Virus record (IMG/VR): IMGVR_UViG_3300045988_063094
Coordinates: 1 to 56,219 of that record
DNA: 56,219 nt
Reading direction: 5' to 3' (one strand)
Source: a virus
Below the pieces are notes generated by a model, which saw nothing but the letters and a program-made list of their open reading frames with translations, had not been told where the DNA came from and made no database searches. Every line of letters starts with the position of its first letter. Within the stretch, counting starts at the first letter, position 1. The position numbers were made by a program, and so were the translations under genes. Shown here piece by piece: positions 5,179 to 52,580 of this stretch.

Positions 5179-6866
5179 CGCACATCAGCTCCTTCCAAAA
5201 GGTATCCCTCCACCGTTCCATGGAAACAGCCAGAGTATTCATAGCTGAACCGAGTAGTCAGAAGAACAGAAGAGTATCCAAATTGATGATGAATCAGAAC
5301 GTAGTCCAAGGCATCGAAGTGTGGGCTTGCACGATAGCTCAGAGAAGCTTTCTTTCGGTTGGACAAAATCTTGTAAGCTTCGGTCAACGCATTTTTGGGC
5401 TGAGAAAGGATGCTTTCAGATAACATCTCGTTACTGATCGTTTGCGTTGCACCTTCACCAGAAGGATTGCTTGGATAAGAATGCTCTTTGCTCTCAGAGC
5501 TGCTTCCAGACTTCACGTTTACAGTACAAGAAACATTTTTGAGCGGAGAAGAGAAGGCAATTTCAGGCCAGCTGAAATTGTTGATGATTCCAATTTCACC
5601 AGCAAGATTTGAAGATGCGGTGGAAATATCCGGAATGCGGTCAAGCACGATGACGCCTTCGCGTGTCTGATACATTGCCATGCCAGTAGCATTTGCAACC
5701 ATCTGAAGAATATCCGAATCCTTGTAATCGCCCTTGCTCTGGCTTGTGATGTCCGTACTGTAATTTTTCAGTTCTTCCGAAATCCGGAATGTTGCAATGC
5801 TGTCGCTGAGAAGTTCCAGCGCATCGTATGCCATCTCATACAGTGTTCCGTACATACGGCCTGTGTAGTTGGAAACCATGAGATATGCAAACGCGTCACG
5901 CGCTGTAAAGCTTGCTTCGATGCTGTTTGCGGGAACGCTCCATTCCGACAAGAAGAACTTTCCACCGTCAATCCATTCGGTTGTGCCGTCAACATCCATT
6001 CCGTACTGAACAGAAATCTGTTGGCGTTCATACAGATACCGGTAAAGCCCTTCTGGGTTGATGGGGTTCCACTTCTGCTGGCTGTTATCGACTGTAAACG
6101 TAATGCTGTCGTTTGGTAACTGTCCACTGATCGGGTCGCGGGAAGACTCATGCGTGTACGAGAAAATGTCGTTCTTCTCGAACACAATGAACTGGCCGAG
6201 TTGGATTTTTTCCAAACGAGCGCGCCGGTTTGAAATACACCACGAGATGATTTCAAGAGATACTGAATCGTATCCGGAAATTTCCCACTCTACTTCAGAC
6301 AGAACGGAATCGTTGTTCTGAACCGTTTTTGTTGAAACGACCGCTTTCCCGGAATAGGCTGTCAGTTTGAAGCTGGTTGCCCACTCATTACACGTCTGCG
6401 ACCATGTGATCGTCACGCCCGGTATCTTGGCTGTGTGAAGTTTACTGAACGAAAGCGTGATTTTGGGGTGATAGCTGTCCGAAACACAAAACTCACTGAC
6501 ATAACCGGCTTCTTCCGGATAAATGAACAAATTGCAGAGAAGAACATCGTTATCGGATGTCGTCAAAGCATCATATTCAGGCGTTGTCAGCGTGTAAAGT
6601 GTACTTTCCGGAACATTCGCAAACGGGATTTGAAACGTTCCGTCAAGCGGAACAAAATTTAGCTCACCAGTAGCGTACTTTGTATAACCAAGGCTTTCGT
6701 TCTTTACAACGGACGAAACATCACTGAACGAGACCTCTCCGTTCGTGCTTGGAATTGCATCTTCCTGTAAGCCCGGTTCCGTAATTGCGTAGGTGATTTT
6801 TACGAATGTCTCCGGAACCAGTGTTTCGTTGAATTTGTCCAGCCATCTCTGAGAAGGTTGTACCAT
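5175..6866 (-). CDS. tail-tip protein (Tal position)
   Basis: 563-aa ORF, second gene downstream of the tape measure. Confidence 0.55.
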   Translation of the reverse strand: MVQPSQRWLDKFNETLVPETFVKITYAITEPGLQEDAIPSTNGEVSFSDVSSVVKNESLGYTKYATGELNFVPLDGTFQIPFANVPESTLYTLTTPEYDALTTSDNDVLLCNLFIYPEEAGYVSEFCVSDSYHPKITLSFSKLHTAKIPGVTITWSQTCNEWATSFKLTAYSGKAVVSTKTVQNNDSVLSEVEWEISGYDSVSLEIISWCISNRRARLEKIQLGQFIVFEKNDIFSYTHESSRDPISGQLPNDSITFTVDNSQQKWNPINPEGLYRYLYERQQISVQYGMDVDGTTEWIDGGKFFLSEWSVPANSIEASFTARDAFAYLMVSNYTGRMYGTLYEMAYDALELLSDSIATFRISEELKNYSTDITSQSKGDYKDSDILQMVANATGMAMYQTREGVIVLDRIPDISTASSNLAGEIGIINNFSWPEIAFSSPLKNVSCTVNVKSGSSSESKEHSYPSNPSGEGATQTISNEMLSESILSQPKNALTEAYKILSNRKKASLSYRASPHFDALDYVLIHHQFGYSSVLLTTRFSYEYSGCFHGTVEGYLLEGADVR

Positions 6867-28722: not shown

Positions 28723-28835
28723 CAATTTTGCCCCAGCCCAAAAGGGCAAAAATATTTCTTGCAAGTCCTGTTAATGGGGCTTGCGATATGATATACTATA
28801 AAAAAGGGCAAAAGCCCAGAAAAGAGGGAAAAATC

Positions 28836-29605: not shown

Positions 29606-30715
29606 ATAGTCGTAACAGCTTCTGAAATAGTCGTGGAATAGTCGTAAAGTCGTCAGACGACTACTGCTTGAAAGCCCTATATATAGTATAGTAACGGCTG
29701 CTCGCTGATAGTCGCAGAGCAATAGTCGTAATATTTTCTTGCGAATTATCGACAAATAGTCGTGTATTTTTTGTGTGAAATAGTCGTTTGCCTTTTAGGA
29801 AAATGGAGATGCGATAGTCGCTAAGTCATCAGACCGCATAAAATTCATAATCCATTGCATATATTCACTTATTTATTCACTCGCTAGCCATACCAAATTC
29901 GTATACCAACCGTACTTATTGTAATATACGCTTATATATCCTAGTAACTATCTAGGGATTATTCTGCTAGAATAGTCGTATCATCTAATTCGGTCCGTTC
30001 CTGCTCGATTTAATTCCCAGCAATGTGCTATGATATTTCAACTAATCCATACTACTTTGCTATGAATAATTATGCCTGATAGTCGCAGTCAAGCTATGCA
30101 ACATTTGTGCATATCCAACCGACTACAAAATGAAGTCAATTCTCCATGTGAAATAGTCGTGGAGGGTGGCAGGTCAGATGCCGTTGCCCTTTATAGGCTA
30201 GATGCCGTTACCGTTGGAGGTCACCCGGTCGGCGCGGTGCGCCGGACGATAGAGGGTGACGTAACGTAGAGGTCAGATTGACGGTATGCCTTTATCCAGC
30301 TAATAGAACCTGACGGCAGATGCTGGTAACGGTCTGCTCTGCTGGCTAACGGCGTAGCTTTGGAGATAGAGGGTTGTAGGGGGAAAGAACCTTTGCAAAG
30401 CATCCGGTTGTCGTTTCCGGTTGTCGCACCATTTTGGCGTGGGGGCCTCAAACAATTTATTTGTTTGAGGGGGGAGTTAGGGGGATTATAGGGGGTAATA
30501 GGGGTTGTAGGGGAAAGAGGGGGAAGAAAGGGGGGAAGATTGGATGCGGACGCATCATGTGCATTCATTTGCATGCAAACGCATCACGCTGATAGTCGTA
30601 GCCATATCAGCTCAAACTCCGCTCGATCGAGACGGCTCCTACTCAAATCCAGACCTTGCCGTTTTCCCATGATAAATAACAAGAGAAAAAAGCACGGAAT
30701 AGTCGCAGAGGGTAG
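29606..30715 (+). repeat. field of 13 co-oriented ATAGTCG(Y) repeats in non-coding DNA
   Basis: Cores start at 29606, 29627, 29638, 29708, 29722, 29756, 29780, 29814, 29972, 30079, 30153, 30592 and 30709. A palindromic variant AGTCGT-cag-ACGACT lies at 29648-29662. Confidence 0.85.
30361..30540 (+). repeat. G-run / TAGGGG repeat tract with an embedded perfect hairpin
   Basis: Nine runs of G4-G6 and five TAGGGG copies. The hairpin CCTCAAACAA-tttat-TTGTTTGAGG lies at 30446-30470. Confidence 0.8.
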
Positions 30716-31212: not shown

Positions 31213-32436
31213 TTACATCCACACGCATTCTTTGAACTGCTGGGTTTCCATCTGGAACGTGATGTCTAGTGACCCTACGTTGCCCTCTTTGTTCTTCTCA
31301 AGCGCAAAGTGATAATGCGGCTCCGGTCTCTTTTTCGTGGTCACGTTCTGCGCCAGCAGGATGATTGCATCTGCGTCCTGCTCGATCTGTCCGCTCTCTC
31401 TCAGGTCTGCGGCAGTCGGTGGAATGCTTGTTCTTGCTGTCTCTCGATTAAGCTGCGCAAGAGCTATCACCAGCGTTCCTGTGGACTGTGCGAACTCGTG
31501 TAGCGCCATGCTGATTTCTGTGACGGCACTGTATCGGTCTTTCGCTCCGGCTTGATGGATAAGCTGCAAATAGTCTATGAACACCACTTTTGCCTGCATC
31601 CTGATAGACTGCGTTCTAATCCACCCAACGCTCTTACCAGCGGCAGAACGGACGAATAGCGGATATTTCTTGATGGCTGCCAGCCGGTCAAGCTCGTCAA
31701 TGCTGACGGTTTTGTTTTTGACCGTGTGTAGCGGTACGCCTAGCTGGTTTGCGATGATACGAGCATAGAGGGTATCAGGGTCTGTCTCTAGGCTGAAATA
31801 CGCCACCTTGCGTCCGTTCTTGGCTATTTCACAGGCAAGTTGCAGGGATAGAGCAGTCTTACCGGCAGACGGTCTGCCGCCGATCACAACGAAGTTACCC
31901 GGAACAAGATGCAAGTTGTTGTCCAGCACTTTAAGCCCTGTGCTGATATACTCCGGCTTATCATCCAGTCTGCGGATGTAGCCGTCTATACCATCGCACA
32001 TCGGAATAAAATTACTTCTCTCGTTGTGCAGGTTAATAGCTTCGCCTAACTGCTCATAAATGCCCGTCAGGTCTGCGTATCTGGTCGAGCCATCAACAAT
32101 TTTGAACGCAATCTCTCTGGCTCTGGACAACGCTGCCTGTTCCTTGACGATTCCAGCCCATCTAAGCATCATATCATGGGTGACGTTTCGGATGAACTCT
32201 GCACCAAAGGCATCTAGGCATTCACCCATTGCTTTCTTGCAGTTATCGTACCGCCCCATGACTTCTACCGGGTTCCACTTGTCGTTGTGTTCCCAATAGC
32301 CACGAATGGCAGCGAATGTATCATGCAGTTCAGGGCAGAAATCGTCAATTTTAAGATCTTGTAGCACATCGGCATACTCAGAAAACGTGAGGACTGCTCC
32401 CAGAAGGATGTATTGGGTTTGATTTTCAATATTCAC
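31213..32436 (-). CDS. dnaB: replicative DNA helicase, DnaB family
   Basis: Walker A GGRPSAGKTALSLQ and a DnaB C-terminal domain layout. Confidence 0.85.
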   Translation of the reverse strand: MNIENQTQYILLGAVLTFSEYADVLQDLKIDDFCPELHDTFAAIRGYWEHNDKWNPVEVMGRYDNCKKAMGECLDAFGAEFIRNVTHDMMLRWAGIVKEQAALSRAREIAFKIVDGSTRYADLTGIYEQLGEAINLHNERSNFIPMCDGIDGYIRRLDDKPEYISTGLKVLDNNLHLVPGNFVVIGGRPSAGKTALSLQLACEIAKNGRKVAYFSLETDPDTLYARIIANQLGVPLHTVKNKTVSIDELDRLAAIKKYPLFVRSAAGKSVGWIRTQSIRMQAKVVFIDYLQLIHQAGAKDRYSAVTEISMALHEFAQSTGTLVIALAQLNRETARTSIPPTAADLRESGQIEQDADAIILLAQNVTTKKRPEPHYHFALEKNKEGNVGSLDITFQMETQQFKECVWM

Positions 32437-41734: not shown

Positions 41735-42337
41735 TTAGCCCTCCTTCGGCTGTTTCTGGGCACAGTCCCAACACAGGACACGCCCAAAGCGTTTCTTCGT
41801 GCTTCTTGCAGTTTCCAGCGGAGTGACTGTGCGGTTGTTGTACTGAATAGGCTGCAACTGCTTTCCGCAGCAAGCGCATGGGGGGATGGTTTCCGCTTCC
41901 GTTTGCTTCTGCGCAGGCTTGTTTGCCCTGCTTGTGGTCTGCTTCTGGTACTCGTCCGTGTCAGCGTCCTTCGTATCGTCAATGCAGAACAGACCGTTCA
42001 GAGCGTACTTTCTAGCGTAGCTGCTTGCAGTACCGGTAAGTTGGGAATCTGACATACCAGATTGCTGCTTTGGCTCTCTGGCGTATGCCGTGTTAGATAT
42101 TTTGTCTCCGGTCTCCGAATCGTAGATTGTTGCAGTCGCTTTGATATAGTGGTACTCACCACTCTGTACAGGCTCGTCTTCAAGAACAAGACAGGCTCCG
42201 TATTTCGCAAGGAGGGGTTTTACTGCTTCCAGAATGTCTTCGCAACTGCGGTAATTGTACTTACCAAAAGAATTGCGCTGGCTTTTTGGGGCTTTCAGCT
42301 CGCCTTGAATTTTGGAAAGCTTCACAAGTGTTTCCAT
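41735..42337 (-). CDS. ERF-family single-strand annealing protein
   Basis: Start METLVKL with a GGAAGGAGA RBS. KAPKSQRNSFGKYNYRSCEDILEAVKPLL. Confidence 0.65.
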   Translation of the reverse strand: METLVKLSKIQGELKAPKSQRNSFGKYNYRSCEDILEAVKPLLAKYGACLVLEDEPVQSGEYHYIKATATIYDSETGDKISNTAYAREPKQQSGMSDSQLTGTASSYARKYALNGLFCIDDTKDADTDEYQKQTTSRANKPAQKQTEAETIPPCACCGKQLQPIQYNNRTVTPLETARSTKKRFGRVLCWDCAQKQPKEG

Positions 42338-42785
42338 ATTTCTCCTTCCATAAAGCATCTTTTGCTTTCTTAGCTTCTTCTATGGTTTTGAATCGGTATG
42401 TTTTGCCGCTAAAGTGGAACGAATATCTGCGTTTCAAACCTTTCGTTGAACGGTCTTCGTAGATTCCGTACTCGCCAGTTAAAGTGTTTCTGGCCTGAAC
42501 AGTATTTGCAACATTATCAGCTTGGGTTACGCAGCGAAGATTCTCAATCCTGTTGTCTGCCCTGATTCCATTGATATGATCGATTACTCCAATAGGCATT
42601 AGCCCATAATGAAGTGCGTACACAAGGCGGTGTGCTTTGTATTGTTTTCCTTTGATTTTTACAATCAAATACCCGTCTTTATCGTAGCTTCCTGCACTGT
42701 TTTTCCTGTCTTTTCTGTGTAACGTACCGCCAGAATCAACGTAAAACCATTTGCAAAGATACTCGACAAGTTCCTTATCGGTCAT
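42261..42785 (-). CDS. HNH homing endonuclease
   Basis: IDHINGIRADNRIENLR motif. The 3' end overlaps the ERF start by 77 nt. Confidence 0.75.
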   Translation of the reverse strand: MTDKELVEYLCKWFYVDSGGTLHRKDRKNSAGSYDKDGYLIVKIKGKQYKAHRLVYALHYGLMPIGVIDHINGIRADNRIENLRCVTQADNVANTVQARNTLTGEYGIYEDRSTKGLKRRYSFHFSGKTYRFKTIEEAKKAKDALWKEKYGNTCEAFQNSRRAESPKKPAQFFW

Positions 42786-42857
42786 GGAATCGTCCTCCTT
42801 TCTTCGGCTTTATTAGGCTTGATTGCTCTTACTTTGGCTTAATACGGCTGTACAAAA

Positions 42858-43007
42858 TCAATCTCCCCAGCACACGGAATCCGCTTCATCTGGCCGCTGC
42901 CATTCAGGCTCTTCGTCCGTCCTGGGAGCGAAGTAGTAGTCATCGGGCGGCTCAACCACGCCACCAAACCGATCAAAACAACCGGAACAATCGTACATTT
43001 CGTTCAT
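42858..43007 (-). CDS. small acidic protein (49 aa)
   Basis: ATGA overlap with the upstream stop. Internal start of ORF 42858..43145. Confidence 0.35.
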   Translation of the reverse strand: MNEMYDCSGCFDRFGGVVEPPDDYYFAPRTDEEPEWQRPDEADSVCWGD

Positions 43008-43249
43008 ACCGTGCCTCCAAGTTTCAGGATTTTTGCCTTCATCTCTTCCACAAGGGCTTCCAACTGAGATATGATATATTTCATCTTGCTGAAACTCCTC
43101 GTTACGGAGTCCCACTGATCCATATCTATTTCGACTGTATTCCATGTATGGCCGCAGTTCTCGCAGAGTCTCCGTCGGATGATGTTGTCTTCACATGATG
43201 TGCTGCGATAGATTTTGATTTTCTCGCTTCCGCATGTCGGGCACTTCAC
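43004..43249 (-). CDS. NrdR-like zinc-ribbon protein
   Basis: GTG start in a GTGA overlap. KCPTCGS...IRRRLCENCGHTWNTVE. Confidence 0.45.
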   Translation of the reverse strand: MKCPTCGSEKIKIYRSTSCEDNIIRRRLCENCGHTWNTVEIDMDQWDSVTRSFSKMKYIISQLEALVEEMKAKILKLGGTV

Positions 43250-43506
43250 TTGGCATCCCTCCACTCGTTTGTGTGATGCGGGATGCGCTTGATTTTTCGG
43301 CTCTCTTGCTCCATGCGCTCGTTTTCGGCGCTTACGCCAATTGCGGCCAAAATAAGAGCTGCAAAAAGCATCGCCAGAGCAAGGAAGGCGTATCCAAGCA
43401 TCGCCCATCCGTTTGCCGCGCCATCAATAGCATTTCCGCACCCAAGAGCTACGATAGCAAGCGAAATGCTCATACAGCACAGCACCGTGCCTTTAACTGT
43501 TTTCAT
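43246..43506 (-). CDS. small membrane protein
   Basis: 86 aa with two to three TM segments. Confidence 0.5.
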   Translation of the reverse strand: MKTVKGTVLCCMSISLAIVALGCGNAIDGAANGWAMLGYAFLALAMLFAALILAAIGVSAENERMEQESRKIKRIPHHTNEWRDAK

Positions 43507-43738
43507 CTCTCTTCACCTCTTTCAAAATAATGTCAAATCCGTTCGGCTTTTTCTCGTTGATGACTATTTTTGCATTTAACGCCTTTGCGATTTTTAGAAG
43601 CGTATCGACCCGAACGGAACTTTTCTGCTTCTTTCGCTTGCCCAAGATGCTGTAAATCGTCGGTCTTGATATCCCAGATCTACGGCTGAGGTCGTTGATG
43701 TTGAAGTACCTGACCCTCATTGCATCTTCCAGCGTCAT
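43493..43738 (-). CDS. HTH (XRE-like) regulator
   Basis: INDLSRRSGISRPTIYSIL. The C-terminus resembles that of 22397..22618. Confidence 0.6.
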   Translation of the reverse strand: MTLEDAMRVRYFNINDLSRRSGISRPTIYSILGKRKKQKSSVRVDTLLKIAKALNAKIVINEKKPNGFDIILKEVKRDENS

Positions 43739-43926
43739 GCCTTTTTACCGACGCCGAAAATCCAGCAGGTGGCCATCAGAGCGCCAACACCTATGATGTA
43801 CCATGTCGCCTTAGCTCCGACCAAAAGCTCAATATGATGCACAAGCCAGAAGTTCAACAGGAACGTTGCCAGAATCAATGCCAGGACGATGCCCCAGATC
43901 AGGGCGATTTCCACAAGTGCTTTCAT
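43735..43926 (-). CDS. small membrane protein
   Basis: Start MKALVEIALIW with an AAGGAG RBS. Confidence 0.5.
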   Translation of the reverse strand: MKALVEIALIWGIVLALILATFLLNFWLVHHIELLVGAKATWYIIGVGALMATCWIFGVGKKA

Positions 43927-44006
43927 TTTTCTCCTTTCGCTTGTTGATATGTTCCAGCCGCTCCTTCTCACGGCTGTGCCAGCGGATTTCCCGCTGACCG
44001 TAATAT

Positions 44007-44408
44007 TTACCGTTCATCAGGCGGCTCCACCTTCCCCTGACTAAGCAACGTGCTGTAATGCCCATAGTTCATTCCGAGCGACTTTGCTTTGTCGTTTATT
44101 TGCTTGATGCTGTATCTAGGTGGAGTCGGCCTTTGCCTTTCTGGCAGCTTGAATTGATATCCAGCCGGTGCGCATGACCTTTCGACCTTTCTAGCACAAT
44201 CTTTGTGATACTTTTGATCTGGTGTTTTCTTTACCATCGCCTTACCGCACCACGCACAGAGACCCATCACTCGTTCGGTTTTGCCATTCCGACGTCTCCA
44301 TTTCGCTTGTTGTTCAAGCTGGACATTGTGCGCACATACGACGCAATACTTCTGGTTTGCGTTCGGAGCTTCAAGAAACGCTCCACAGCGGACGCAGAAT
44401 TTATTCAT
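44007..44408 (-). CDS. zinc-finger protein
   Basis: Start MNKFCVRCG ... CVVC ... CAWCG. Confidence 0.5.
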   Translation of the reverse strand: MNKFCVRCGAFLEAPNANQKYCVVCAHNVQLEQQAKWRRRNGKTERVMGLCAWCGKAMVKKTPDQKYHKDCARKVERSCAPAGYQFKLPERQRPTPPRYSIKQINDKAKSLGMNYGHYSTLLSQGKVEPPDER

Positions 44409-44570
44409 CGCGCTCACCGTCTTTCTCTCTGGCTTCCCGGTTGTGCCTTTCAAAGCACTGGTTCAGCATCTTTTCCATCCAGAACACCTTGTTGGCATCG
44501 TTTCGGGATACTCCAGCAGCCATTGCCAGCTTCAGTCTGCGTTTGCGGCTTTGCGCCCTGCGAAAATTCG

Positions 44571-44969
44571 TCACCAGCACTCACCAACCTTCTTGGTGAT
44601 GAACTCAGGCACGTTCCTGCCGGTAGTCCGGCACAGGCAGACGCACTTAGCAATCCAAATATCAAAAAAAGCAGAAGGGATGCAGCACGTTGCATTTCTC
44701 TTAAAGCTTTCATTATCCGGTTTACTAAGCCAAACAGAAACCGCCTTGTAGTCATACGCTTCCGTGACTCTGCACCATTCGATGCTATACCCATCCAAAC
44801 ACAGTCGGTTCATAATACGCATTGCCATAAGCTTTGCTTCGATGAGGTCCGCTTCTGTCCACTTCAGCTTGTCCGCCTCGTAGGCCTTTGTCGCTTCGTT
44901 AATGGCGTGGTGCGCTTCTTCCGGGTATTCAAGGTCAACCTTTAAGGTGATGATCTGTTCCATGTTCAT
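44571..44969 (-). CDS. hypothetical protein
   Basis: 132-aa ORF overlapping the Rha gene stop. Confidence 0.55.
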   Translation of the reverse strand: MNMEQIITLKVDLEYPEEAHHAINEATKAYEADKLKWTEADLIEAKLMAMRIMNRLCLDGYSIEWCRVTEAYDYKAVSVWLSKPDNESFKRNATCCIPSAFFDIWIAKCVCLCRTTGRNVPEFITKKVGECW

Positions 44970-45718
44970 CCCTCCACTTTCCTGCTCTTCTCCGTCTTTA
45001 AGAAGAGATTAACGAAATAGACCTGACCGATACCCGTCACCTTCGGGGTCTTATTGATAGAAGTGTGCCCATCGGAATGTGCAATGGATGTTTCCTTGAT
45101 TTCAAACAGGCGAAGTTCCATAGACTTCTGCGTTGGCATATTGTAGTCTGTCCGCTTTCTTTCCTTAATCAGGTATCCGTTCTCACGCATCCATGAGAAC
45201 AAGCGGTTCTGCCCCATCTGGATGCCGTTCTGTGACAGCAGCTTTGCCATTTCACCAACAAGAATGCTTTGGTTGCTTGCGCTCACAGCGTCAGCGAAAA
45301 GCGCTTTCGGCTTCATGGTTTCAATCTGCTTGTCCTTCTCTTCCAGCTCTTCGTGCGCCGCAATCAGCGCAGTTGCAAGGAGTTGTGAACGAGTGAGCTG
45401 CGGCTGTTCAGCCAGCTTCTTTTCCATTTCGTTGAACGCTGCAATGTACTTGAGCTTCCACTCAAGAGCCGCCTTTCCGGTAAAGCCCATAGCCAGCAGG
45501 GTGAAACCGTCACGGTTCATCAGGTAAGCCCTCTGTTCCCTGCCGTAGCTATCCGGCACGGTGGTTTCAAAGAACATCTGCGCAAAATTGCGCACATCTT
45601 CTTTGAGGTTGTCCACAGCTCTAAGAACGTCACGGTGGTTCTTTTCAAAGCTCTCAGCAATCTGACGACTGGATGCTACCGGTTCGCCGTTCTGGGTCGA
45701 TAATATAATGTCGGTCAT
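44966..45718 (-). CDS. Rha-family regulatory protein / antirepressor (second copy)
   Basis: VASSRQIAESFEKNHRDVLRAV ... YLMNRDGFTLLAMGFTGKAALEWKLKYIAAFN. Confidence 0.75.
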   Translation of the reverse strand: MTDIILSTQNGEPVASSRQIAESFEKNHRDVLRAVDNLKEDVRNFAQMFFETTVPDSYGREQRAYLMNRDGFTLLAMGFTGKAALEWKLKYIAAFNEMEKKLAEQPQLTRSQLLATALIAAHEELEEKDKQIETMKPKALFADAVSASNQSILVGEMAKLLSQNGIQMGQNRLFSWMRENGYLIKERKRTDYNMPTQKSMELRLFEIKETSIAHSDGHTSINKTPKVTGIGQVYFVNLFLKTEKSRKVEG

Positions 45719-45731
45719 TTTTTCTCCTTTT

Positions 45732-45950
45732 TTACTCTTCCGAACCTTGAATATTCAGAATCCGGCAGATGCTTTGGACGATTTTGTCCGGTTTCCGCTC
45801 TCCGCGAAGAATCTTGTAGAGGTACGAATCGTCAAAGAACAGTCCTGTGTCATCCCTGACAGCCTGAATCAGTTCCGTTTGCTTCATACCTCGCTGAAGC
45901 AGCTTCATCTTTACTTCAAGCCCAAAATCAGACCAGAAGTTTTCTTTCAA
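45732..45950 (-). CDS. Cro-like HTH regulator, first gene of the early operon
   Basis: TTG start with a GGAGGTGG RBS. MKQTELIQAVRDDTG. Confidence 0.55.
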   Translation of the reverse strand: MKENFWSDFGLEVKMKLLQRGMKQTELIQAVRDDTGLFFDDSYLYKILRGERKPDKIVQSICRILNIQGSEE

Positions 45951-45977
45951 AATTCCACCTCCATTTGCTAAAATCTA

Positions 45978-46006
45978 TTGACAAGTACGGAAATCTGTAC
46001 TAATAT
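45978..46006 (+). promoter_or_regulatory. rightward promoter toward the repressor gene
   Basis: TTGACA, 17-bp spacer (= operator O1), TAATAT. Confidence 0.5.
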
Positions 46007-46109
46007 AATGGTGTAGAGAGTTCATATTGTACAGTGTTCTGTACTGCCCATGTCTGTATTATAGTACAGGCTTCTGTACAAGTCAACTCTTTTGTACAAA
46101 ATTCTGTGC
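45985..46109. promoter_or_regulatory. four operators GTACAG-N4-CTGTAC
   Basis: 16-bp cores at 45985, 46029, 46064 and 46094. The second and third are perfect; the first has 1 mismatch and the fourth has 2. Confidence 0.65.
46058..46086 (-). promoter_or_regulatory. leftward early promoter
   Basis: Minus strand reads TTGACT, 17-bp spacer (= operator O3), TATAAT. Confidence 0.55.
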
Positions 46110-46143
46110 ATTTGTATACTTGCACAAATATGGGAGTGTTCTT

Positions 46144-46473
46144 ATGTCGGACTTGTACAGCAACATCCACGCACTCTGCGAAAAAGAGGGCATCAAAGAC
46201 GGAACCCTTTGTGCCAACATCGGGATTCGCCGTAGTTTTCTTTCCGAGTTAAAAGCCGGGAGAACCAAGAGCCTGTCCGCAGAGGTTCTTTCTAAAATTG
46301 CAGCCTACTTCAACGTATCGGTAGACTACCTTCTCACTGGCGAACAAAAAGAAAACCCGCCCCAGCAGCCGCAAAGCGAAATTGATGCAGCAGTGGAGCG
46401 GATTAGAAGAAAACTTGAATCCATGCCGAAAGAACAGCGTGAAGCTCTGATGAACCTGATTGAGAAGATGTGA
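46144..46473 (+). CDS. CI-like XRE-family repressor
   Basis: Start MSDLYSNIHALCEKEG; HTH SFLSELKAGRTKSLSAEVLSKIAAYFNVSVDYLL. Divergent from the cro-like gene. Confidence 0.7.
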   Translation: MSDLYSNIHALCEKEGIKDGTLCANIGIRRSFLSELKAGRTKSLSAEVLSKIAAYFNVSVDYLLTGEQKENPPQQPQSEIDAAVERIRRKLESMPKEQREALMNLIEKM

Positions 46474-46496
46474 GGAAACGGTTCTGACCCGGTAAA

Positions 46497-46545
46497 ATAA
46501 AAACCCCTTGTGCCGGGCTGGTGTAGCTCTGTGCAAGGGGTTTTC
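46497..46545. terminator. stem-loop terminator after the repressor gene
   Basis: AAACCCCTTG ... CAAGGGGTTT stem with A/T flanks. The loop is large. Confidence 0.45.
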
Positions 46546-46840
46546 TGTTATTCCAGGTCTAAGGCTTGTTCCGCTGCCGGAATCTTATCAGGGTGTTCCA
46601 ACAGCCATGCGATAAATCGGTCAATCTTAGCTCTTTCTTGTTCACTCATTGTGGCATATCCTCCCGATCGGTAAGTTCGGATGTTCATTTGATATGATTA
46701 TACATCTTTCAGTTGTATAGTCAATACAATTTTAACAACTTCGTAAAAATCGAATGTTTTCTTCACATCCGTTACTTTACATCGGGGAAGCCACGAGCGT
46801 TCAAGTCAAAAGGGACAACGCCTATCCATCTTTCCTCCAA

Positions 46841-47047
46841 TCACAGCTCTACGAGCTGCCCGTCAATGCGTTCGATGCTATCTCCCGGGTCGCGCCCATC
46901 GTCTAAGGCGGCTACGGCACGTTCCAAGATGCCTTTTGCTTCGAGGTAAGCATCTTTATCAGCTTCGTACCCAGAAAGGCTCAGGACAAGCTCCAGCGTC
47001 CGTCTACGAGCGTATGGAATAATCAGAGCATCTACGGTTCGGTTCAT
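46841..47047 (-). CDS. hypothetical protein
   Basis: Start MNRTVDAL; TAATG overlap with a 36-aa upstream ORF (47047..47157). Confidence 0.4.
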   Translation of the reverse strand: MNRTVDALIIPYARRRTLELVLSLSGYEADKDAYLEAKGILERAVAALDDGRDPGDSIERIDGQLVEL

Positions 47048-47299
47048 TAGCTTTCCTCCCATGGTTCAGGTGTGTGCGGTTGCCCATCGGGAACGCTGGC
47101 GGGCATTCCATCGATGATCGGCATACGTTCATGGTTCCAGATTACAGTTTCTTTCATTTTGTGTTTCCTTTCTATTTGGAATTTTTTGACAATACAGTTA
47201 TAACATAGGCTGCTGTTGGTTCTCCATAGCAGCTTTTTCCATTTTTTGGCTTGTCGAATCCGGCAGTTTTGTAGAATTTTGTTGAAAGGGCGTGAATTT

Positions 47300-47893
47300 A
47301 TGGATGAATATTTGTTAAGAACTTCAAGGGCATTGGAAATGGCACGAATGCGTTCCGGTCTGAGTCAGCAGAAATTGGCGGCACAGATGGGCGTTAATCG
47401 TGGTACGATTGCCAACTGGGAGCAAGGTCTGGCAGCCATCTCCCTGCCAATGGCTATGCGCTGGTTCACCTGCTGCGGCGTATCGGTGGCTCGGTACATG
47501 GACGCTTGCATTCATCCGGGGCTGCTGGAGCATCTGGAGGACGACCTTTCCGGCATGGAAAAGCGTCAGATTCTCATAGATGCCATGATGGAGTGTTCTT
47601 CCTACGAGATAGATGCCTTGTTGTATATGCGGTACGGAGATCACGGTTCAGACCACATTGGTGTGCTGACGGAGGTTCTGGCAAACCTTCACACGCCGTT
47701 GAAGGACAGGGTCTCTGTCTGCCGGATGGTATCGGGCAACTATGAAATAGCGCAGGCTACCGGGACAGACCCAGACCCGAACGGAACCACCCCGAAGATG
47801 GAGATTCTCTATCAGGCGCAAGATGCCGGAACGGAAGCTGCTATGAAGTCCAACGATTCTTATACCGTGAACCCGAATAATATAATCGGCTGA
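47300..47893 (+). CDS. XRE-type HTH protein with a C-terminal domain of unknown function
   Basis: Start MDEYLL; SGLSQQKLAAQMGVNRGTIANWEQG. Confidence 0.6.
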   Translation: MDEYLLRTSRALEMARMRSGLSQQKLAAQMGVNRGTIANWEQGLAAISLPMAMRWFTCCGVSVARYMDACIHPGLLEHLEDDLSGMEKRQILIDAMMECSSYEIDALLYMRYGDHGSDHIGVLTEVLANLHTPLKDRVSVCRMVSGNYEIAQATGTDPDPNGTTPKMEILYQAQDAGTEAAMKSNDSYTVNPNNIIG

Positions 47894-47927
47894 TTGTCGA
47901 ATTATCGCAGTTTTTGAAGAACATTTT

Positions 47928-48470
47928 GTCCACGTTCATCCACTTTTTGTACACCTATCGGGCAAATTCGCCTTGTCATTCCGTCCCCCATAGACTGCAA
48001 ATCGACAACATTCGCGCGGAATAAATAACGAATTATCGTCAATCTATTGCTTGCGATTGAGTGGTTCGTCAATCCGTCCCCCATTGTGCAGATTAGGTAT
48101 ACCTTTCCATCCACTTCTTGTACACCTATCCACAATCCGTCCACGTTTGGTATACCTAACGTTGAACCGTGTCTACCATTGGAATCTACCGTTCTTGTCT
48201 TATTTAGCAATGGCTTTTGATACTGTTTTCAACAAAGAAAAAAAGAAAAGAAAAGTTTTTGTGGAAAATTCTACTACTTCCTATTAGTAGAAGATATTTT
48301 AATATCTTGTTTTAACTCTTGTTTTATATATAGTAAGAACGTGGACAAAAAATGGATGAACGAGGACGGATTGTGGACGAACGAGGACAAAATATTCCAC
48401 AAACGAGGACGAATTGTGGATGAACGTGGACGTTATGTATTGACTCGTCCTCGTAACGGTGGTATAATAG
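47928..48470. other. plasmid-type replication origin: phased iterons, inverted copies and an AT-rich core
   Basis: Five TGGAYGAACGWGGAC-type iterons end at 48346, 48367, 48388, 48410 and 48431 (21-22 bp spacing). Inverted copies occur at e.g. 47928-47942 and 48130-48143. An A/T-rich tract spans 48200-48335. Confidence 0.65.
48440..48468 (+). promoter_or_regulatory. rep promoter overlapped by an inverted iteron half
   Basis: TTGACT, 17-bp spacer, TATAAT. The spacer contains GTCCTCGT, the reverse complement of ACGAGGAC. Confidence 0.55.
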
Positions 48471-48503
48471 CTGTGGAAATCAAATCGGAAAGGAAGTGTT
48501 GAA

Positions 48504-49595
48504 GTGTCAGACATCAAAGGAGGCAATCTGATTGAGAAAAGCCGACCTCTTGTATGGGCGAAATTCAGGGACTACACGGCTGGCGAACTTCGTCTGTTGG
48601 AAGTCTACTTGTCAAGAATCAACCCTCGTGACCCTGAAACGTCAGCAGTCAGATTCACGTTGAAAGAATACTGTGATTTTCTGGACATCAAAATTAACTC
48701 AAGGAATTTGAAAGCGCAGGTCAAGCACTTTGTTAGCAACTCTGTGGAAGTTCCTAGAGGTGATAAGGCTGGTTCTTATGACATCTATCCCCTGTTTGAC
48801 CAAGCGTCTGTCGAATTTGATTACAAGTTAGCTAATTTCTTTATCACGCTTAGCTGCAATCCGAAACTGCGTCCTGTTTTCTTCGACATCGCCGAAAAAG
48901 GATACGTTAGATATCGTCTGCGGTACACGGCAAGTATGAAATCGCAGTACAGTATTCTCTTGTATTCAATCTTGCGTGACATGATAGGTCGAGGAATAAA
49001 AACGCCTGAAATTACAGTTGAGAAGCTAAGAGAACAGTTAGGAGCGAACGAACCGAGCTACAACGAATATCGGTATTTGCGAAAGCGAGTTCTTGATGTG
49101 GCGGTAAAGGAAATCAATGAACTGTCTGACTTGCAGGTCGATTATGAGCGTGTCATCATTGGACATAAGGTTGTATCAGTGAAGTTTAACGTGCATCAGC
49201 ACACAGAGCCGGTCATAGATGCCGAATCAAGCGAGGTTAGCGGTTCGTCCTTGAAAGATGTTCCTGAAGACCAAAGGCCTGTTAAAAAGGCTCGCAGAGG
49301 TGCGTATGAAGATGTTGACTGGGCATCCATTGCTCCAAGACTTACGGAAAAGCAGTGCATCGAGATTGCAAAGTCCGTTGCAAAGCGCATCAAGGAAAAA
49401 TACCCAAACATAAAACAGAACAAAAAGAAAGAAGCAGTTGTAAATATCGTCGAGAACGCTTATCGAATCATTATTGTCGATGGTGAAGCGGAGCGAAAAG
49501 AACCGTTGAAGAATCCGGGGGGGTACTTGTTCAAGACGATTGAAAAGACAGACCTTGATGATTATGCTACATTTGACGATAGCTTCTTGAAGTAG
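48504..49595 (+). CDS. Rep_3/RepB-like plasmid replication initiator
   Basis: GTG start. LIEKSRPLVWAKFRDYTAGELRLLEVYLSRINPRD has the layout of iteron-binding initiators and lies directly after the iterons. Confidence 0.7.
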   Translation: MSDIKGGNLIEKSRPLVWAKFRDYTAGELRLLEVYLSRINPRDPETSAVRFTLKEYCDFLDIKINSRNLKAQVKHFVSNSVEVPRGDKAGSYDIYPLFDQASVEFDYKLANFFITLSCNPKLRPVFFDIAEKGYVRYRLRYTASMKSQYSILLYSILRDMIGRGIKTPEITVEKLREQLGANEPSYNEYRYLRKRVLDVAVKEINELSDLQVDYERVIIGHKVVSVKFNVHQHTEPVIDAESSEVSGSSLKDVPEDQRPVKKARRGAYEDVDWASIAPRLTEKQCIEIAKSVAKRIKEKYPNIKQNKKKEAVVNIVENAYRIIIVDGEAERKEPLKNPGGYLFKTIEKTDLDDYATFDDSFLK

Positions 49596-49627
49596 TCATA
49601 CACAGTAAATAAAGAAAGAGGGACAAA

Positions 49628-50407
49628 ATGGCAAAAATTATAGCTGTTGCTAACCAGAAGGGCGGCACAGGAAAGACCACAACAAGCACCTGTCTGACTG
49701 GTGCGTTGCAGTTGCTTGGCAAGAAAGTTCTGCTTGTGGACTGCGATGCCCAGTGCAACGCAACGGACACCTACGGTGCACAGACAGAGGACGTATGCAC
49801 CCTGTTTGACGTGATGACCCGGCAAGGTACGGTCGAAGAAGGAATCCAGCACTGCGAAGCCGGTGACATTCTGCCGTCAGACAACGCATTGAAGGACATT
49901 GACGAGCAGCTTGTTCGGGACATAGGCAAGAACTTCCGGCTGCGTGAAGCGCTGGAACCCGTGTCTGCACAGTACGATTACATTGTTTTGGACACTCCCC
50001 CGCAGCTTGGTCTTGCACTTGTGAACGCTCTGATCGCCGCCAACAGCATCATCGTACCCATTACAGCAGACCGCTATGCGCTTGCCGGACTGAGCCAGCT
50101 TTCGCAGACCATCGGTGATGTTCACAGATACTTCAACCCGACCTTGAAGATTGAAGGTCTGCTTCTGAACCAGTACAAGAGCCGTGAGAATCTGTCCAAA
50201 GAGGTGGTGGAGCAGCTTCCTGTGATTGCACAGAGCATGGGAACAAAGCTGCTTGACGTGAAGATTAGACCGTCTATGGGCGTTCGTAAGGCACAGGCGG
50301 AGCGGCACAGCCTGTTTAGCGGTGACACGGCAAAGAGCACCAGCGCAGAGGACTTCAAAGAGCTGGCAAAGAAGATTGTAGAGGGGGATAAAAATGCGAC
50401 TGATTGA
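49628..50407 (+). CDS. parA: ParA/Soj-type partition ATPase
   Basis: Deviant Walker A: AVANQKGGTGKTTT. Confidence 0.85.
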   Translation: MAKIIAVANQKGGTGKTTTSTCLTGALQLLGKKVLLVDCDAQCNATDTYGAQTEDVCTLFDVMTRQGTVEEGIQHCEAGDILPSDNALKDIDEQLVRDIGKNFRLREALEPVSAQYDYIVLDTPPQLGLALVNALIAANSIIVPITADRYALAGLSQLSQTIGDVHRYFNPTLKIEGLLLNQYKSRENLSKEVVEQLPVIAQSMGTKLLDVKIRPSMGVRKAQAERHSLFSGDTAKSTSAEDFKELAKKIVEGDKNATD

Positions 50408-50711
50408 TTCTGATGAACTTGTAAATTACTGTTTGCAGAACCAAGCCAACAACGCAAGAATTCGTAGCGAAACGGCAAGCGTATGTGATGTTTTAGAAAG
50501 CGTAATTTGCCATATAAGACTGATGGATGAAATCCAGCCGAAAGAAACAGCAAAGTGGGAAGTTCATCATCGAGTGGACGAAGATGGAGTGCATTGGGAT
50601 TGGCTCGAATGCTCAAACTGCCATTATAAAATTGCACGTTACCCGAAAATGTACCGTGAGACAAGATTTTGCGCTTGTTGCGGATCAAAGATGGAGGATG
50701 AAGAAGAATGA
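50394..50711 (+). CDS. hypothetical protein with a C-terminal zinc ribbon (paralog of 37970..38353)
   Basis: RLIDSDEL ... CSNC ... FCACCGSKMEDEEE. Confidence 0.55.
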   Translation: MRLIDSDELVNYCLQNQANNARIRSETASVCDVLESVICHIRLMDEIQPKETAKWEVHHRVDEDGVHWDWLECSNCHYKIARYPKMYRETRFCACCGSKMEDEEE

Positions 50712-51280
50712 AATCAACCAGCAAAAAATCCTCTGGCTTGCTTGGCGGGTTTGATTTTCAGCCTATTTTTTCGGAACAAACATTAAGCCGAAGTGAGCCA
50801 AAGGAAGAAGAAGTAAGCCAAACAAAGCCAAATAACGCCGAACGAGAGCCAATTAAGCCCAGTGAAGCCGTAAACAGCCATGCACAGCCAAGTGATGCTG
50901 AATTAAGCAATATTAAGCCAAAGCAAGCCAAAGACAGCGAAAGACAGCCAAATGATGCTGTATTAGGCAGAGGTAAGCCGAAGAAGCTGAAACAGGCAAA
51001 GGAAACGAAACGGCTGATTGAACAGGGCAATATTCCCGGCGCACTAGCCGAAGCTGGCTTGACAAAGAAAAAAATCCCGATGCCGGAATCGCATCAGGGT
51101 GTTGCAAGCGGTGACGGCAAGCGGTCTAAGCGCATTACCATCCTTATGAGCGAGGAGGAACGCAAGTACATCAACCGTGAAGCCAGACGGCACGGAATGA
51201 CCATCGGGCAGTTTGTGTACGCTCTGGCTGCTGCGGCGGCAGATGGGAAGATTGAACTGGAAGATTTCTTGGAGGAATAA
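50708..51280 (+). CDS. protein with a C-terminal ribbon-helix-helix (ParG-like centromere-binding candidate); the N-terminal part is encoded by the decamer array
   Basis: ATGA overlap and a GGAGGA RBS. C-terminus KRITILMSEEERKYINREARRHGMTIGQFV. An alternative short form could start at the ATG of MPESHQG (about 51082). Confidence 0.55.
   Translation: MKSTSKKSSGLLGGFDFQPIFSEQTLSRSEPKEEEVSQTKPNNAEREPIKPSEAVNSHAQPSDAELSNIKPKQAKDSERQPNDAVLGRGKPKKLKQAKETKRLIEQGNIPGALAEAGLTKKKIPMPESHQGVASGDGKRSKRITILMSEEERKYINREARRHGMTIGQFVYALAAAAADGKIELEDFLEE
50781..51000 (+). repeat. about 22 tandem 10-bp units, consensus AAnnAAGCCA
   Basis: Written in 10-nt blocks from 50781, the units align in register. 13 of 22 carry AGCC at the same position. 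One 11/9 compensation occurs near 50841-50860. Confidence 0.85.
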
Positions 51281-51405
51281 AGGGCAAGATTTAAGTGTAA
51301 AAGAAAAATGGAAAGAAAATGGATTAACACATTGACATTTGGCTACACAACTGATCCGAAGAACATTTGCAAGCTCGGTATCGTAGATTGAGAGGAAATC
51401 TGAAG

Positions 51406-51711
51406 ATGAATAACACTCGTAGAAAAGCCATTAAGCAGACCATTGACCGTTTTGATTCCATCCGTGAAAAGCTGGAAGAGCTTGTGGCAGAGGTCGAAAG
51501 TGTAAAATCCGATGTTAAGGACATCCAGTGGGAAGAAGAAGAGTATCGTGACAATATGCCTGAGAACCTACAAGGCAGTGAGCGGTATGACAAAGCGGAT
51601 GATGCTTGCACGAATCTGTCTGATGCTGTGGATGCTCTGGACGATATGATTGGTGCTCTGGACTTTGATTTTGGTGATGTAACTACTTCTCTGGAAAAGG
51701 CGATGGAGTGA
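51406..51711 (+). CDS. hypothetical acidic coiled-coil protein
   Basis: ATG at 51406 (MNNTRRKAIK). Confidence 0.55.
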   Translation: MNNTRRKAIKQTIDRFDSIREKLEELVAEVESVKSDVKDIQWEEEEYRDNMPENLQGSERYDKADDACTNLSDAVDALDDMIGALDFDFGDVTTSLEKAME

Positions 51712-51783
51712 TTGCGGTTGCGAACCCGTTGAGAAGAAGTGCGTGGACTGTATTTCTATATAGAGAATGAGGGTGAAGAGATT

Positions 51784-51996
51784 ATGCGCACATACAAGCC
51801 ACACAAGCACAGAAGCAAAGAGGAACAAGCTCCTTCTGTAGATACCGTTGCGGTCATTCGGTGTAAGAACTGTGATTTATGGAACACATGGGACAAACAA
51901 GGAGAACTGTGTAGTTGTGCTCACTTCACGTTAGATGATTCCAGCCCTGCGTATACAAAACCTGATGATTTCTGTAGTTATGCAGAGCAACGATAA
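51784..51996 (+). CDS. Cys-rich small protein
   Basis: ATG at 51784. CKNC..W ... CSC ... FCSY. Confidence 0.5.
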   Translation: MRTYKPHKHRSKEEQAPSVDTVAVIRCKNCDLWNTWDKQGELCSCAHFTLDDSSPAYTKPDDFCSYAEQR

Positions 51997-52014
51997 AAGC
52001 TGAGTTCTAGGAGG
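51991..52014 (+). repeat. gene-junction motif CGATAAAAGCTGAGTTCTAGGAGG (copy 1)
   Basis: Spans the stop codon TAA and the next RBS. Related copies lie at 52631 and 52857. Confidence 0.7.
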
Positions 52015-52022
52015 ATTGACGT

Positions 52023-52580
52023 ATGATTGTTTATAGACCACATCGTGGTTCTTTGGAAGATGCCATGAAAGAAGTAAAAACATTTGACAACTGGTATCAG
52101 ATGACACATTATATTGCAAATAATTGGAATTTGGCGGTTGGCAAGAAAGTGATAGACCCTGATGATATTGTTATGGACGATAAACCGGTCAATGATGACC
52201 GTGTTGGTTGGAAAGACGTTCACATGGTTTTGGCAACTCGTATTGGGAATGACAACTTTATGGAAAAATACGGAAACTCGCAGTGCATCGGGTATTGCAC
52301 TTACGATGTCTCAAGTGTCAAAAAATACTTAACACCGAAAGAAGTAGGGAGCGAAAACTTTTATTGGGTCAAAATCCAGTACGATGATGACAAAAAATGC
52401 AGACACTTTCAAGCTCCGTTCGTCTTGTTTGCAAACAGCAAGGAAGAAGCAAAAGCAAGAATCGAGCGAGAGGTCCCCGGCAAGTTTTCCATTATCAGTG
52501 TGGTAGAACTCGACAAGAGCCTTGTAATTACCCCGCAAGATTTGTTTGACATGAGGTCAAAATCAACGCTTTGGGAATAA
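52023..52580 (+). CDS. hypothetical protein
   Basis: 185-aa ATG ORF with a GGAGGA RBS. Confidence 0.6.
   Translation: MIVYRPHRGSLEDAMKEVKTFDNWYQMTHYIANNWNLAVGKKVIDPDDIVMDDKPVNDDRVGWKDVHMVLATRIGNDNFMEKYGNSQCIGYCTYDVSSVKKYLTPKEVGSENFYWVKIQYDDDKKCRHFQAPFVLFANSKEEAKARIEREVPGKFSIISVVELDKSLVITPQDLFDMRSKSTLWE

Follow-up and report, generated by a model that had tools for sequence, protein, structure and literature searches.

Introduction

The ribbon-helix-helix (RHH) centromere binders described in the literature form cooperative coats on unspaced tandem 7–10-bp repeats and activate a ParA partner through flexible N-terminal tails (PMC3074162, PMC3130281). In the type Ib system of the Leifsonia xyli plasmid pCXC100, RHH dimers fill nine unspaced, non-palindromic 9-bp direct repeats one after another in a cooperative manner (PMC3074162). 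Here, we analyzed a 56,219-nt viral sequence (IMG/VR record IMGVR_UViG_3300045988_063094, positions 1 to 56,219; hereafter, the window) in which 21 tandem decamers (50780–50989, plus strand) lie inside the open reading frame (ORF) of a gene for a 190-aa candidate centromere-binding protein (50708–51280, plus strand). This RHH gene is the last of a plasmid-type operon that also encodes a Rep3 initiator, a ParA ATPase and a zinc-ribbon (Zn-ribbon) protein. The array is a real DNA-constrained feature of a known kind of system, and what is new is its placement inside the gene of its putative reader. On the evidence of sequence, we consider it rather likely that the array is the cis-acting centromere of a type Ib ParA/RHH system, embedded in the linker-coding part of the RHH gene, and it is probably an autoregulatory operator as well.

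The pCXC100 ParA–ParB pair is like that of the window in having a small Walker-type ParA and a binder in which a long flexible N-terminal region precedes an RHH domain at the C-terminus (PMC3074162), and the 9-nt arrays of one related lineage (L081, see below) closely resemble the pCXC100 centromere. The pCXC100 repeats are non-coding and located 5′ of parA, however, whereas here 21 × 10 bp are found inside the ORF of the binder; no sequence similarity was detected. ParG of TP228 is an RHH protein whose flexible tail activates a ParA-type ATPase and which coats arrays of 12 and eight degenerate short boxes. These arrays are elastic, with deletions lowering function gradually, and the same kind of array serves as the centromere (parH) and as the OF operator (PMC3130281). 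Unlike the decamers of the window, the TP228 unit measures 8 bp (ACTC plus an AT-rich spacer), occurs in mixed orientation and lies wholly 5′ of parFG. The omega protein of pSM19035, also of the RHH type, binds several separate sets of contiguous heptads, each of them centromere-like, and is a global regulator too (PMC3130281). The delta–omega system is a possible model for a main array accompanied by a minor one, as found here, although its heptads have a period of 7 bp and occupy promoter regions rather than coding sequence. In the type II ParR–parC system of pSK41, RHH dimers occupy 10-bp half-sites of tandem 20-bp repeats and form a superhelical nucleoprotein structure (PMC3130281). The spacing of 10 bp is common to parC and the window array, but the pSK41 motor is the actin-like ParM and parC lies 5′ of its operon, whereas the motor encoded in the window is a Walker-type ParA.

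For the dual-coding layout, the closest precedent comes from RepA_N replicons such as pSK41 and pAD1, in which Rep boxes lie centrally in rep, where the DNA also codes for a dispensable linker joining two functional domains (PMC5703833). There, however, the boxes number four and form a replication origin read by a winged-helix initiator, in contrast to the 10–20 short units and the RHH protein considered here. The first-pass annotation of this DNA had called an array inside the binder's own frame unusual, which holds for RHH centromere binders but not more widely, given precedents such as the pSK41 Rep boxes. Lin and Grossman are also said to have found, in 1998, a parS site of B. subtilis inside spo0J. 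The varying location of parS among repABC replicons is dealt with in PMC9040568. Sites such as parS in parB/spo0J or in repABC genes are comparable in that a centromere lies within the partition genes themselves; they differ in being single 16-bp palindromes read by a helix-turn-helix, CTP-dependent ParB, not long arrays that form a segment of a protein. To our knowledge, the type Ib site has so far always been described upstream of parA. Our literature search found no description of this phage-plasmid family or of an RHH centromere within coding sequence.

The decamer array and its periodicity

Over 50780–50989, the decamers follow the consensus A-G-C-C-(A/G)-A-A-(G/T)-N-A. AGCC occupied block positions 7–10 in 12 of the 21 decamers, one further AGCC (50847–50850) was off register by one base, and a single 11-nt unit is present near 50840–50850. 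The first-pass annotation had counted approximately 22 decamers, 13 of them with AGCC in place, and was nearly right. The 13 AGCC within approximately 230 nt represent an approximately 12-fold enrichment over the whole window (4.8 per kb), and the motif count gave no GGCT in the array region, the base composition of which is 42% A and 12% T.

Autocorrelation and Fourier analysis confirmed the period of 10 nt as the strongest such signal of the window. The match fraction was 0.585 at lag 10, 0.51–0.56 at lags 20–50 and 0.61 at lag 60, while other lags gave approximately 0.25–0.3. The period-10 power of the array (6.13) was the highest of all 210-nt segments in the 56-kb sequence (median 0.68, 99th percentile 2.5). 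Tandem Repeats Finder (TRF) reported periods of 10 and 60 nt, and a repeat search returned 12 copies spaced 10 nt. Two controls were applied to the coding sequence. The observed power was attained by none of 5000 codon-order shuffles, nor by any of 5000 sequences in which the same peptide was re-encoded with local codon usage (mean 2.06, standard deviation 0.57, maximum 4.44). The array-encoded peptide is itself periodic at 10 and 20 aa (S-x-x-K/Q-P-x-x-A-x-x) because the 10-nt repeat is read in frame. Part of the periodicity resides in this peptide repeat, and codon choice adds a decamer signal well beyond what the peptide needs.

The RHH gene and its product

The array encodes residues 25–94 of the 190-aa protein, the gene for which starts in an overlap with the stop codon of the preceding ORF (ATGA). 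Of the 71 distinct sequences of this gene, 64 have ATG at 50708, six GTG and one TTG, each a valid start. The ORF was open in all relatives and 190 aa long in most of them. A shorter gene from 51082 (MPESHQG) was rejected because the start at 50708 is kept, the N-terminus is under purifying selection and the longer ORF is open in all relatives. The array had been annotated as lying within or just upstream of the RHH gene; it lies within the ORF at 50708–51280, and the upstream option falls with the 51082 start. The claim that it immediately follows parA proved inaccurate, as a 105-aa Zn-ribbon-like ORF (50394–50711) intervenes.

The protein has three distinguishable parts. Its first 24 residues (MKSTSKKSSGLLGGFDFQPIFSEQ, encoded at 50708–50779 on the plus strand) are under purifying selection, with a ratio of nonsynonymous to synonymous diversity (pN/pS) of 0.14. 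The motif MKxTSKKxSGLLGG(F/L)D(F/Y) in this peptide is recognizable in relatives that are <45% identical overall, and across seven lineages the identity of the first 20 residues rises with that of ParA. By analogy with the tails of ParG, omega and ParB (PMC3074162), the peptide may be a ParA-contacting tail. Residues 21–89, the array-encoded linker, are predicted to be disordered, with an AlphaFold2 (AF2) predicted local distance difference test (pLDDT) score below 50.

The third part is a predicted C-terminal RHH domain (residues approximately 138–178, encoded at 51119–51241 on the plus strand, pN/pS 0.053) composed of the beta-strand KRITILM and helices at 149–161 and 166–178. AF2 pLDDT was 83–92 over residues 141–180, which were modeled as an extended segment followed by two helices. 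A Pfam search matched residues 138–174 to a NikA-like RHH family (E 2.4e-5), with 24.8 bits against a cut-off of 27. In a Foldseek search of the PDB, eight of the 10 best matches were of the RHH type (CopG with TM 0.74, AtaR, CdbA, NikA, and Arc with TM 0.74), all with E > 0.1. An RHH partner downstream of parA is thus indicated at the level of predicted fold, with weak statistics. The 190-aa protein had no Pfam match to the ParG (PF09274) or Omega repressor families at E up to 0.1 and no PHROG match, and a PDB sequence search with its C-terminal 66 aa returned only a designed coiled coil (E 2.3). A scan of genome contigs for the 190-aa protein found no relative, and a scan of viral contigs for P0132 found nothing. 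A relaxosome accessory protein of the NikA/MobA type was not supported, the NikA-like match being below the Pfam cut-off and the NCBIfam MobA score being 17.5 bits against 80. The RHH gene was in the rep-parA operon at every locus examined; no search for a relaxase was made in the rest of the window.

Constraint on the array as DNA

Synonymous diversity (pS) was 0.198 in the array, compared with 0.354–0.384 in the three other segments of the same gene, whereas nonsynonymous diversity (pN) was highest there (0.084 versus 0.02–0.05), as was pN/pS (0.42). Per-site diversity in the array varied with decamer position (eta-squared 0.146, p = 0.01) and not with codon position (eta-squared 0.026, p = 0.13). 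The RHH domain showed the opposite: codon position gave an eta-squared of 0.46 and decamer position explained nothing. At synonymous third positions, nucleotide diversity (pi) was 0.072 at conserved decamer positions, 0.168 at variable decamer positions and 0.248 in the rest of the gene. The 3.4-fold reduction at the core relative to the rest of the gene had a p-value of 2e-6, in statistics that count related sequences as independent sites and carry no correction for phylogeny, and it held separately for two-fold and four-fold sites.

The array is constrained as DNA, and its codon choice is tuned to the decamer. The periodicity had been claimed as a property of the DNA and not of a peptide repeat. 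The halved pS, the dependence of diversity on decamer position and the codon choice beyond the peptide's needs bear out that claim, with the qualification that the peptide too has a real 10-aa periodicity.

An antisense ORF of 90 aa (50758–51030, minus strand) was discarded as a gene, being interrupted in 22 of 81 relatives. That it stays open in most relatives mainly reflects the scarcity of T on the sense strand. Its third codon positions coincide with the third positions of the sense frame, so it cannot account for the reduced synonymous diversity.

Arrays in relatives

Homologs of the 190-aa protein comprised 812 clusters (87–93% identity) and 513 IMG/VR loci. Proteins of 150, 160, 170 and 180 aa occur in the window's own family besides those of 190 aa, through deletions inside the array that are multiples of 30 nt. 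The array-encoded segment thus tolerates natural deletions of 10, 20, 30 and 40 aa, and the decamer register is kept because 30 nt equals three decamers. In a variant of 173 aa (L175), a 51-nt deletion leads to a single 11-nt unit. The array of L174 has nine units, and across the family the number of repeat units ranges naturally from nine to 21, in at least three motif classes.

Relatives with the same Rep3-ParA-RHH synteny and 38–48% identity each possessed their own short-period array in the linker-coding part of the gene. The comparison with relatives, which the first-pass annotation had suggested, was thus more informative than anticipated. The unit was GYCAGWRGAA in L087 (12 units) and TACAGCGNAA in L173 and L182 (10 to approximately 20 units). 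L091 had ACAGC every 10 nt (approximately 10 units), and L090 a 20-nt unit (approximately six units) with a 15-mer, ACTTTGAGGCAGAAT, that is read in two frames, as TLRQN in one copy and HFEAEY in another. L081, L083 and L084 carried approximately 18 units of 9 nt (CARANTSAN), with a match fraction of 0.45 at lag 9 versus 0.20 at lag 10. The linkers of relatives are hypervariable. L181 (P0152) showed only a weak periodicity of 30/60 nt; its operon starts with a different, 495-aa protein, not with Rep3.

The array motif recurred outside the gene in three lineages (L087, L172 and L173), in two of them beside the par operon. The rep-parA spacer of L087 contained six to seven decamers and a 14-mer in common with the intragenic array (0 of 2000 shuffles, 0 of 97 other segments of the locus), and it was the top non-self cluster in a position weight matrix (PWM) scan. 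L172 encodes a 102-aa protein without an intragenic array; here, (C/G)AAGTANNNA decamers were found 5′ of parA and just after the terminator of the RHH gene. These two flanking arrays have a 15-mer in common (0 of 2000 shuffles), and the second of them follows an intrinsic-terminator-like hairpin. An array upstream of parA, the arrangement described for type Ib systems, is present with a matching motif in L087 and L172, and the window has none. L173 had a second array of five to six units 3 kb away on the opposite strand, with a 12-mer in common (2 of 2000 shuffles). This TACAGCG-type array (5320–5378, minus strand) lies inside an unrelated 171-aa gene and is read in several frames (VQRS, TAQYS, QQNTAQ).

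Array type and the RHH domain

Two comparisons with the window separate the array from the other parts of the operon. L081 was 97.8% identical in Rep, 94.9% in ParA and 90% in the N-terminal 20 aa, with only 54% identity in the C-terminal approximately 60 aa of the RHH protein, and its array is of the 9-nt type. L174 was 49% identical in Rep, 94.5% in ParA, 90% in the N-terminal 20 aa and 100% in the same C-terminal part, and its array is of the AAGCC type. DNA homology between the window and L081/L083 ends at 50764, sixteen bases before the array, and resumes at 51247 in L083. These breakpoints flank the array and the RHH domain, which are therefore exchanged as one block, the N-terminal peptide staying with ParA in such swaps. 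Array type goes with the RHH domain, not with Rep or ParA.

In RHH proteins, the beta-strand is the element that reads DNA. The strand RITI(L/I)M was paired with the core AGC(C/G)NAA (window, L173 and L182), RVSV(P/A)M with CAGAATGA (L081 and L090) and RM(A/N)IAM with AAGT(C/A) (L087 and L172). This sorting of strand class with core motif is suggestive, with two lineages per class.

A second, shorter array

A short array of the same decamer family was found at 42800–42854 on the minus strand, with five decamers: (GTAC)AGCC GTATTAAGCC AAAGTAAGAG CAATCAAGCC TAATAAAGCC GAAGAAAGGAGG. It is intergenic, in a spacer of 72 nt, and runs up to the ribosome-binding site of the gene for an HNH endonuclease (start codon 42785). 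It was kept in 55 of 79 relatives despite at least four different genes following it, and it was intact in four genomes with another type of par RHH protein (L176, L177, L178 and L180). The minor array does not appear to be tied simply to the RHH domain of the window and is not counted here as evidence for a centromere. Its retention in L178 and L180 weakens the suggestion that this RHH protein uses it as an operator.

Genomes with the P0127-type par protein contained a second, shortened window-type RHH gene of approximately 106 aa, starting near LGESKPKK (L081 4862–5216, on the same contig as L176; L177 10901–11182). It does not include the putative ParA-contacting N-terminus and is preceded by five AAGCC decamers, after a small Zn-ribbon ORF.

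Proposed mechanism and alternative explanations

In the mechanism that we propose, C-terminal RHH dimers would occupy neighboring AGCC-R-AA decamers in cooperative fashion, one dimer every 10 bp, and so cover approximately 210 bp. The flexible array-encoded linker would present the conserved N-terminal peptide, which would contact and stimulate ParA, and nucleoid-bound ParA would then position the plasmid prophage copies. Binding by the RHH domain, cooperativity, ParA stimulation, centromere activity and roadblock-type autoregulation are what we infer for this locus; the protein, when bound to the DNA that encodes it, might also exert feedback on its expression. Copy number would shift only by three decamers (30 nt), preserving the frame, and because the site is within 300 bp of the domain that would read it, recombination would move site and reader as one specificity cassette. 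We see about an even chance that this holds for a large family of human-gut phage-plasmids, with a centromere inside the ORF of the binder, sites of 9, 10 or 20 bp that double as linker code and a site-plus-reader cassette of approximately 500 bp.

If the array is a centromere, it widens the known type Ib architectures and provides a clean natural overlap of a protein code and a DNA-binding code. It also suggests how DNA-binding domain and target may stay together in mosaic phage-plasmids, being <300 bp from each other within a single gene and swapped as a unit, and would offer a simple one-step route to new partition and incompatibility specificities among near-identical elements sharing a host. 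The family supplies ready-made natural swap and deletion variants. For annotators, low-complexity linkers of small RHH proteins beside parA can hide cis-acting sites. Overall, the proposal in the first-pass annotation of a centromere embedded in coding sequence was supported, every part of it that is open to sequence analysis having held up.

Several observations weigh against a centromere at this place. The classical position 5′ of parA is empty in the window, and a protein coat on transcribed and translated DNA must somehow coexist with RNA polymerase. L178 and L180 keep the minor array with no window-type RHH gene within 10 kb on either side. Motif sharing between gene and spacer was marginal in L090 and L081 (k-mer test, p approximately 0.06). 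The RHH assignment combines a Pfam match below the cut-off (24.8 versus 27 bits) with Foldseek E-values >0.1, and the diversity statistics lack a correction for relatedness.

The array could be a DNA site for the RHH domain that serves regulation only, as an operator, a roadblock setting the RHH:ParA ratio or part of a regulon including 42800–42854, with the centromere elsewhere. Repression by RHH partition proteins is documented for ParG at the OF operator and for omega at several promoters (PMC3130281); in the window, decamers of the same kind directly precede the ribosome-binding site of an early-region gene, and a coat bound 3′ of parA would affect RHH expression selectively. We nevertheless regard this as unlikely: the repeat sets of TP228 and pSM19035 serve as operator and centromere alike (PMC3130281), the searches showed no further candidate repeat close to the par genes of the window, and an operator role is improbable for the L172 array that follows a terminator. 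An improbable reading, in our view, is that the array has no DNA function and that its periodicity is a mutational fossil of a disordered, low-complexity linker grown by slippage or unequal crossing-over of a 10-, 30- or 60-nt unit. The predicted disorder, the highest pN/pS of the gene, the 10-aa length steps, the 60-nt (20-aa) TRF period and the hypervariable linkers of relatives all fit such a history. It would leave unexplained why synonymous diversity is halved, most strongly at conserved decamer positions, and why codon choice exceeds the peptide's needs. In L087 and L172, the motifs also recur next to the par genes outside coding sequence; changes of array type go together with changes of the RHH domain; and five diverged lineages have come to share a period of 10 or 20 nt, which is not a multiple of three.

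A DNA site for a factor other than the RHH domain (ParA, the Zn-ribbon protein, a host protein or a phage regulator) is an alternative to which we give little credence. The minor AAGCC array does persist in L178 and L180, where the 16–20 kb examined hold no window-type RHH gene, but ParA stays approximately 95% identical while array type changes, many relatives keep arrays but have no Zn-ribbon ORF, and array type switches exactly with the RHH domain as one exchanged block. Very doubtful is an action as RNA, whether as an unstructured segment, a translational enhancer or a site for an RNA-binding protein. All arrays seen are on the sense strand of the gene that they occupy or precede, the region is A-rich and T-poor, and the minor array adjoins a ribosome-binding site. 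Against this, one L172 array follows a terminator-like hairpin after the RHH gene, there was no Rfam match (see below), and the co-variation is with a DNA-binding domain. Moreover, a period of 10 nt is readily understood in B-DNA, whereas we know of no significance that it would have in mRNA. Least credible is a set of Rep3 iterons acting as a second origin or a copy-control ("handcuffing") site, for which the position in the rep operon and the iteron-like 20-nt unit of L090 could be cited: typical iterons, an AT-rich region and a promoter are already present 5′ of rep (47900–48500) and co-vary with Rep. We rejected this reading on finding the same array with a 49%-identical Rep (L174) and a different one with a 98%-identical Rep (L081).

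The rep-par operon and its phage-plasmid context

The window belongs to a tailed phage, with genes for a tape measure protein, a major head protein, a portal protein and a large terminase. Contigs of relatives were 55–60 kb long, and the family is very common in human-gut data. A megablast search against a phage collection matched only two human-fecal "Bacteriophage sp." records, which carry no annotation.

The first gene of the plasmid-type operon encodes a Rep3-family replication initiator (48504–49595, plus strand; Rep3_N 81.7 bits, Rep3_C 56.4 bits, PHROG match). It is followed by the gene for ParA (49628–50407, plus strand), a Walker-type ATPase of 259 aa with matches to AAA_31 (181 bits, residues 2–175), CbiA, MipZ, ParA and the PHROG ParA-like family (8.8e-56). 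This ParA is small and has no N-terminal DNA-binding extension, as in type Ib systems. A type II ParMRC system was rejected, the neighboring NTPase being a Walker-type ParA and not an actin-like ParM. The rep-parA spacer of the window (32 nt) contained no AAGCC units, and repeat and motif searches returned no other candidate repeat near the par genes.

The stops and starts of the ParA, Zn-ribbon and RHH genes overlap. The Zn-ribbon-like ORF (plus strand; from the ORF list and Pfam) seems accessory, many relatives being without it; the RHH gene directly follows parA in L083, L090, L172, L173, L174 and L175. Both this ORF and the HNH gene (42261–42785) were variably present among close relatives, and their junctions probably mark mosaic insertion points.

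A plasmid-type origin region (47900–48500) contained the iterons GTGGA(C/T)(G/A)AACG(A/T)GGAC in direct and inverted orientation, an AT-rich stretch (48200–48330) and, directly before rep, a strong promoter-like site (48440–48468; 11 of 12 matches, extended TG). The iteron pattern tracked Rep, being present in L081 (Rep 98%) and absent in L174 (49%), with one reverse match in L083 (49%). No RNA family in Rfam matched 42000–52500 at E up to 0.1.

Other periodic stretches in the window

The window has further period-10 peaks at 28.7 kb and 30.4 kb, which arise from sequences other than AAGCC arrays. At 30370–30540, approximately eight G5 runs are phased every approximately 10 nt (TTGAGGGGGG AGTTAGGGGG ATTATAGGGG GTAATAGGGG ...), giving one of the strongest period-10 signals apart from that of the array itself. 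This stretch lies approximately 700 nt from a DnaB-like helicase gene (31213–32436, minus strand), overlaps only a mechanical ORF of 117 aa and may serve as a lytic origin or as a further array for protein binding. At 28800–28835, A-tracts are phased at 10 nt (AAAAAAGGGC AAAAGCCCAG AAAAGAGGGA AAAATCATG) directly 5′ of an ATG, which looks like a bent promoter or leader region.

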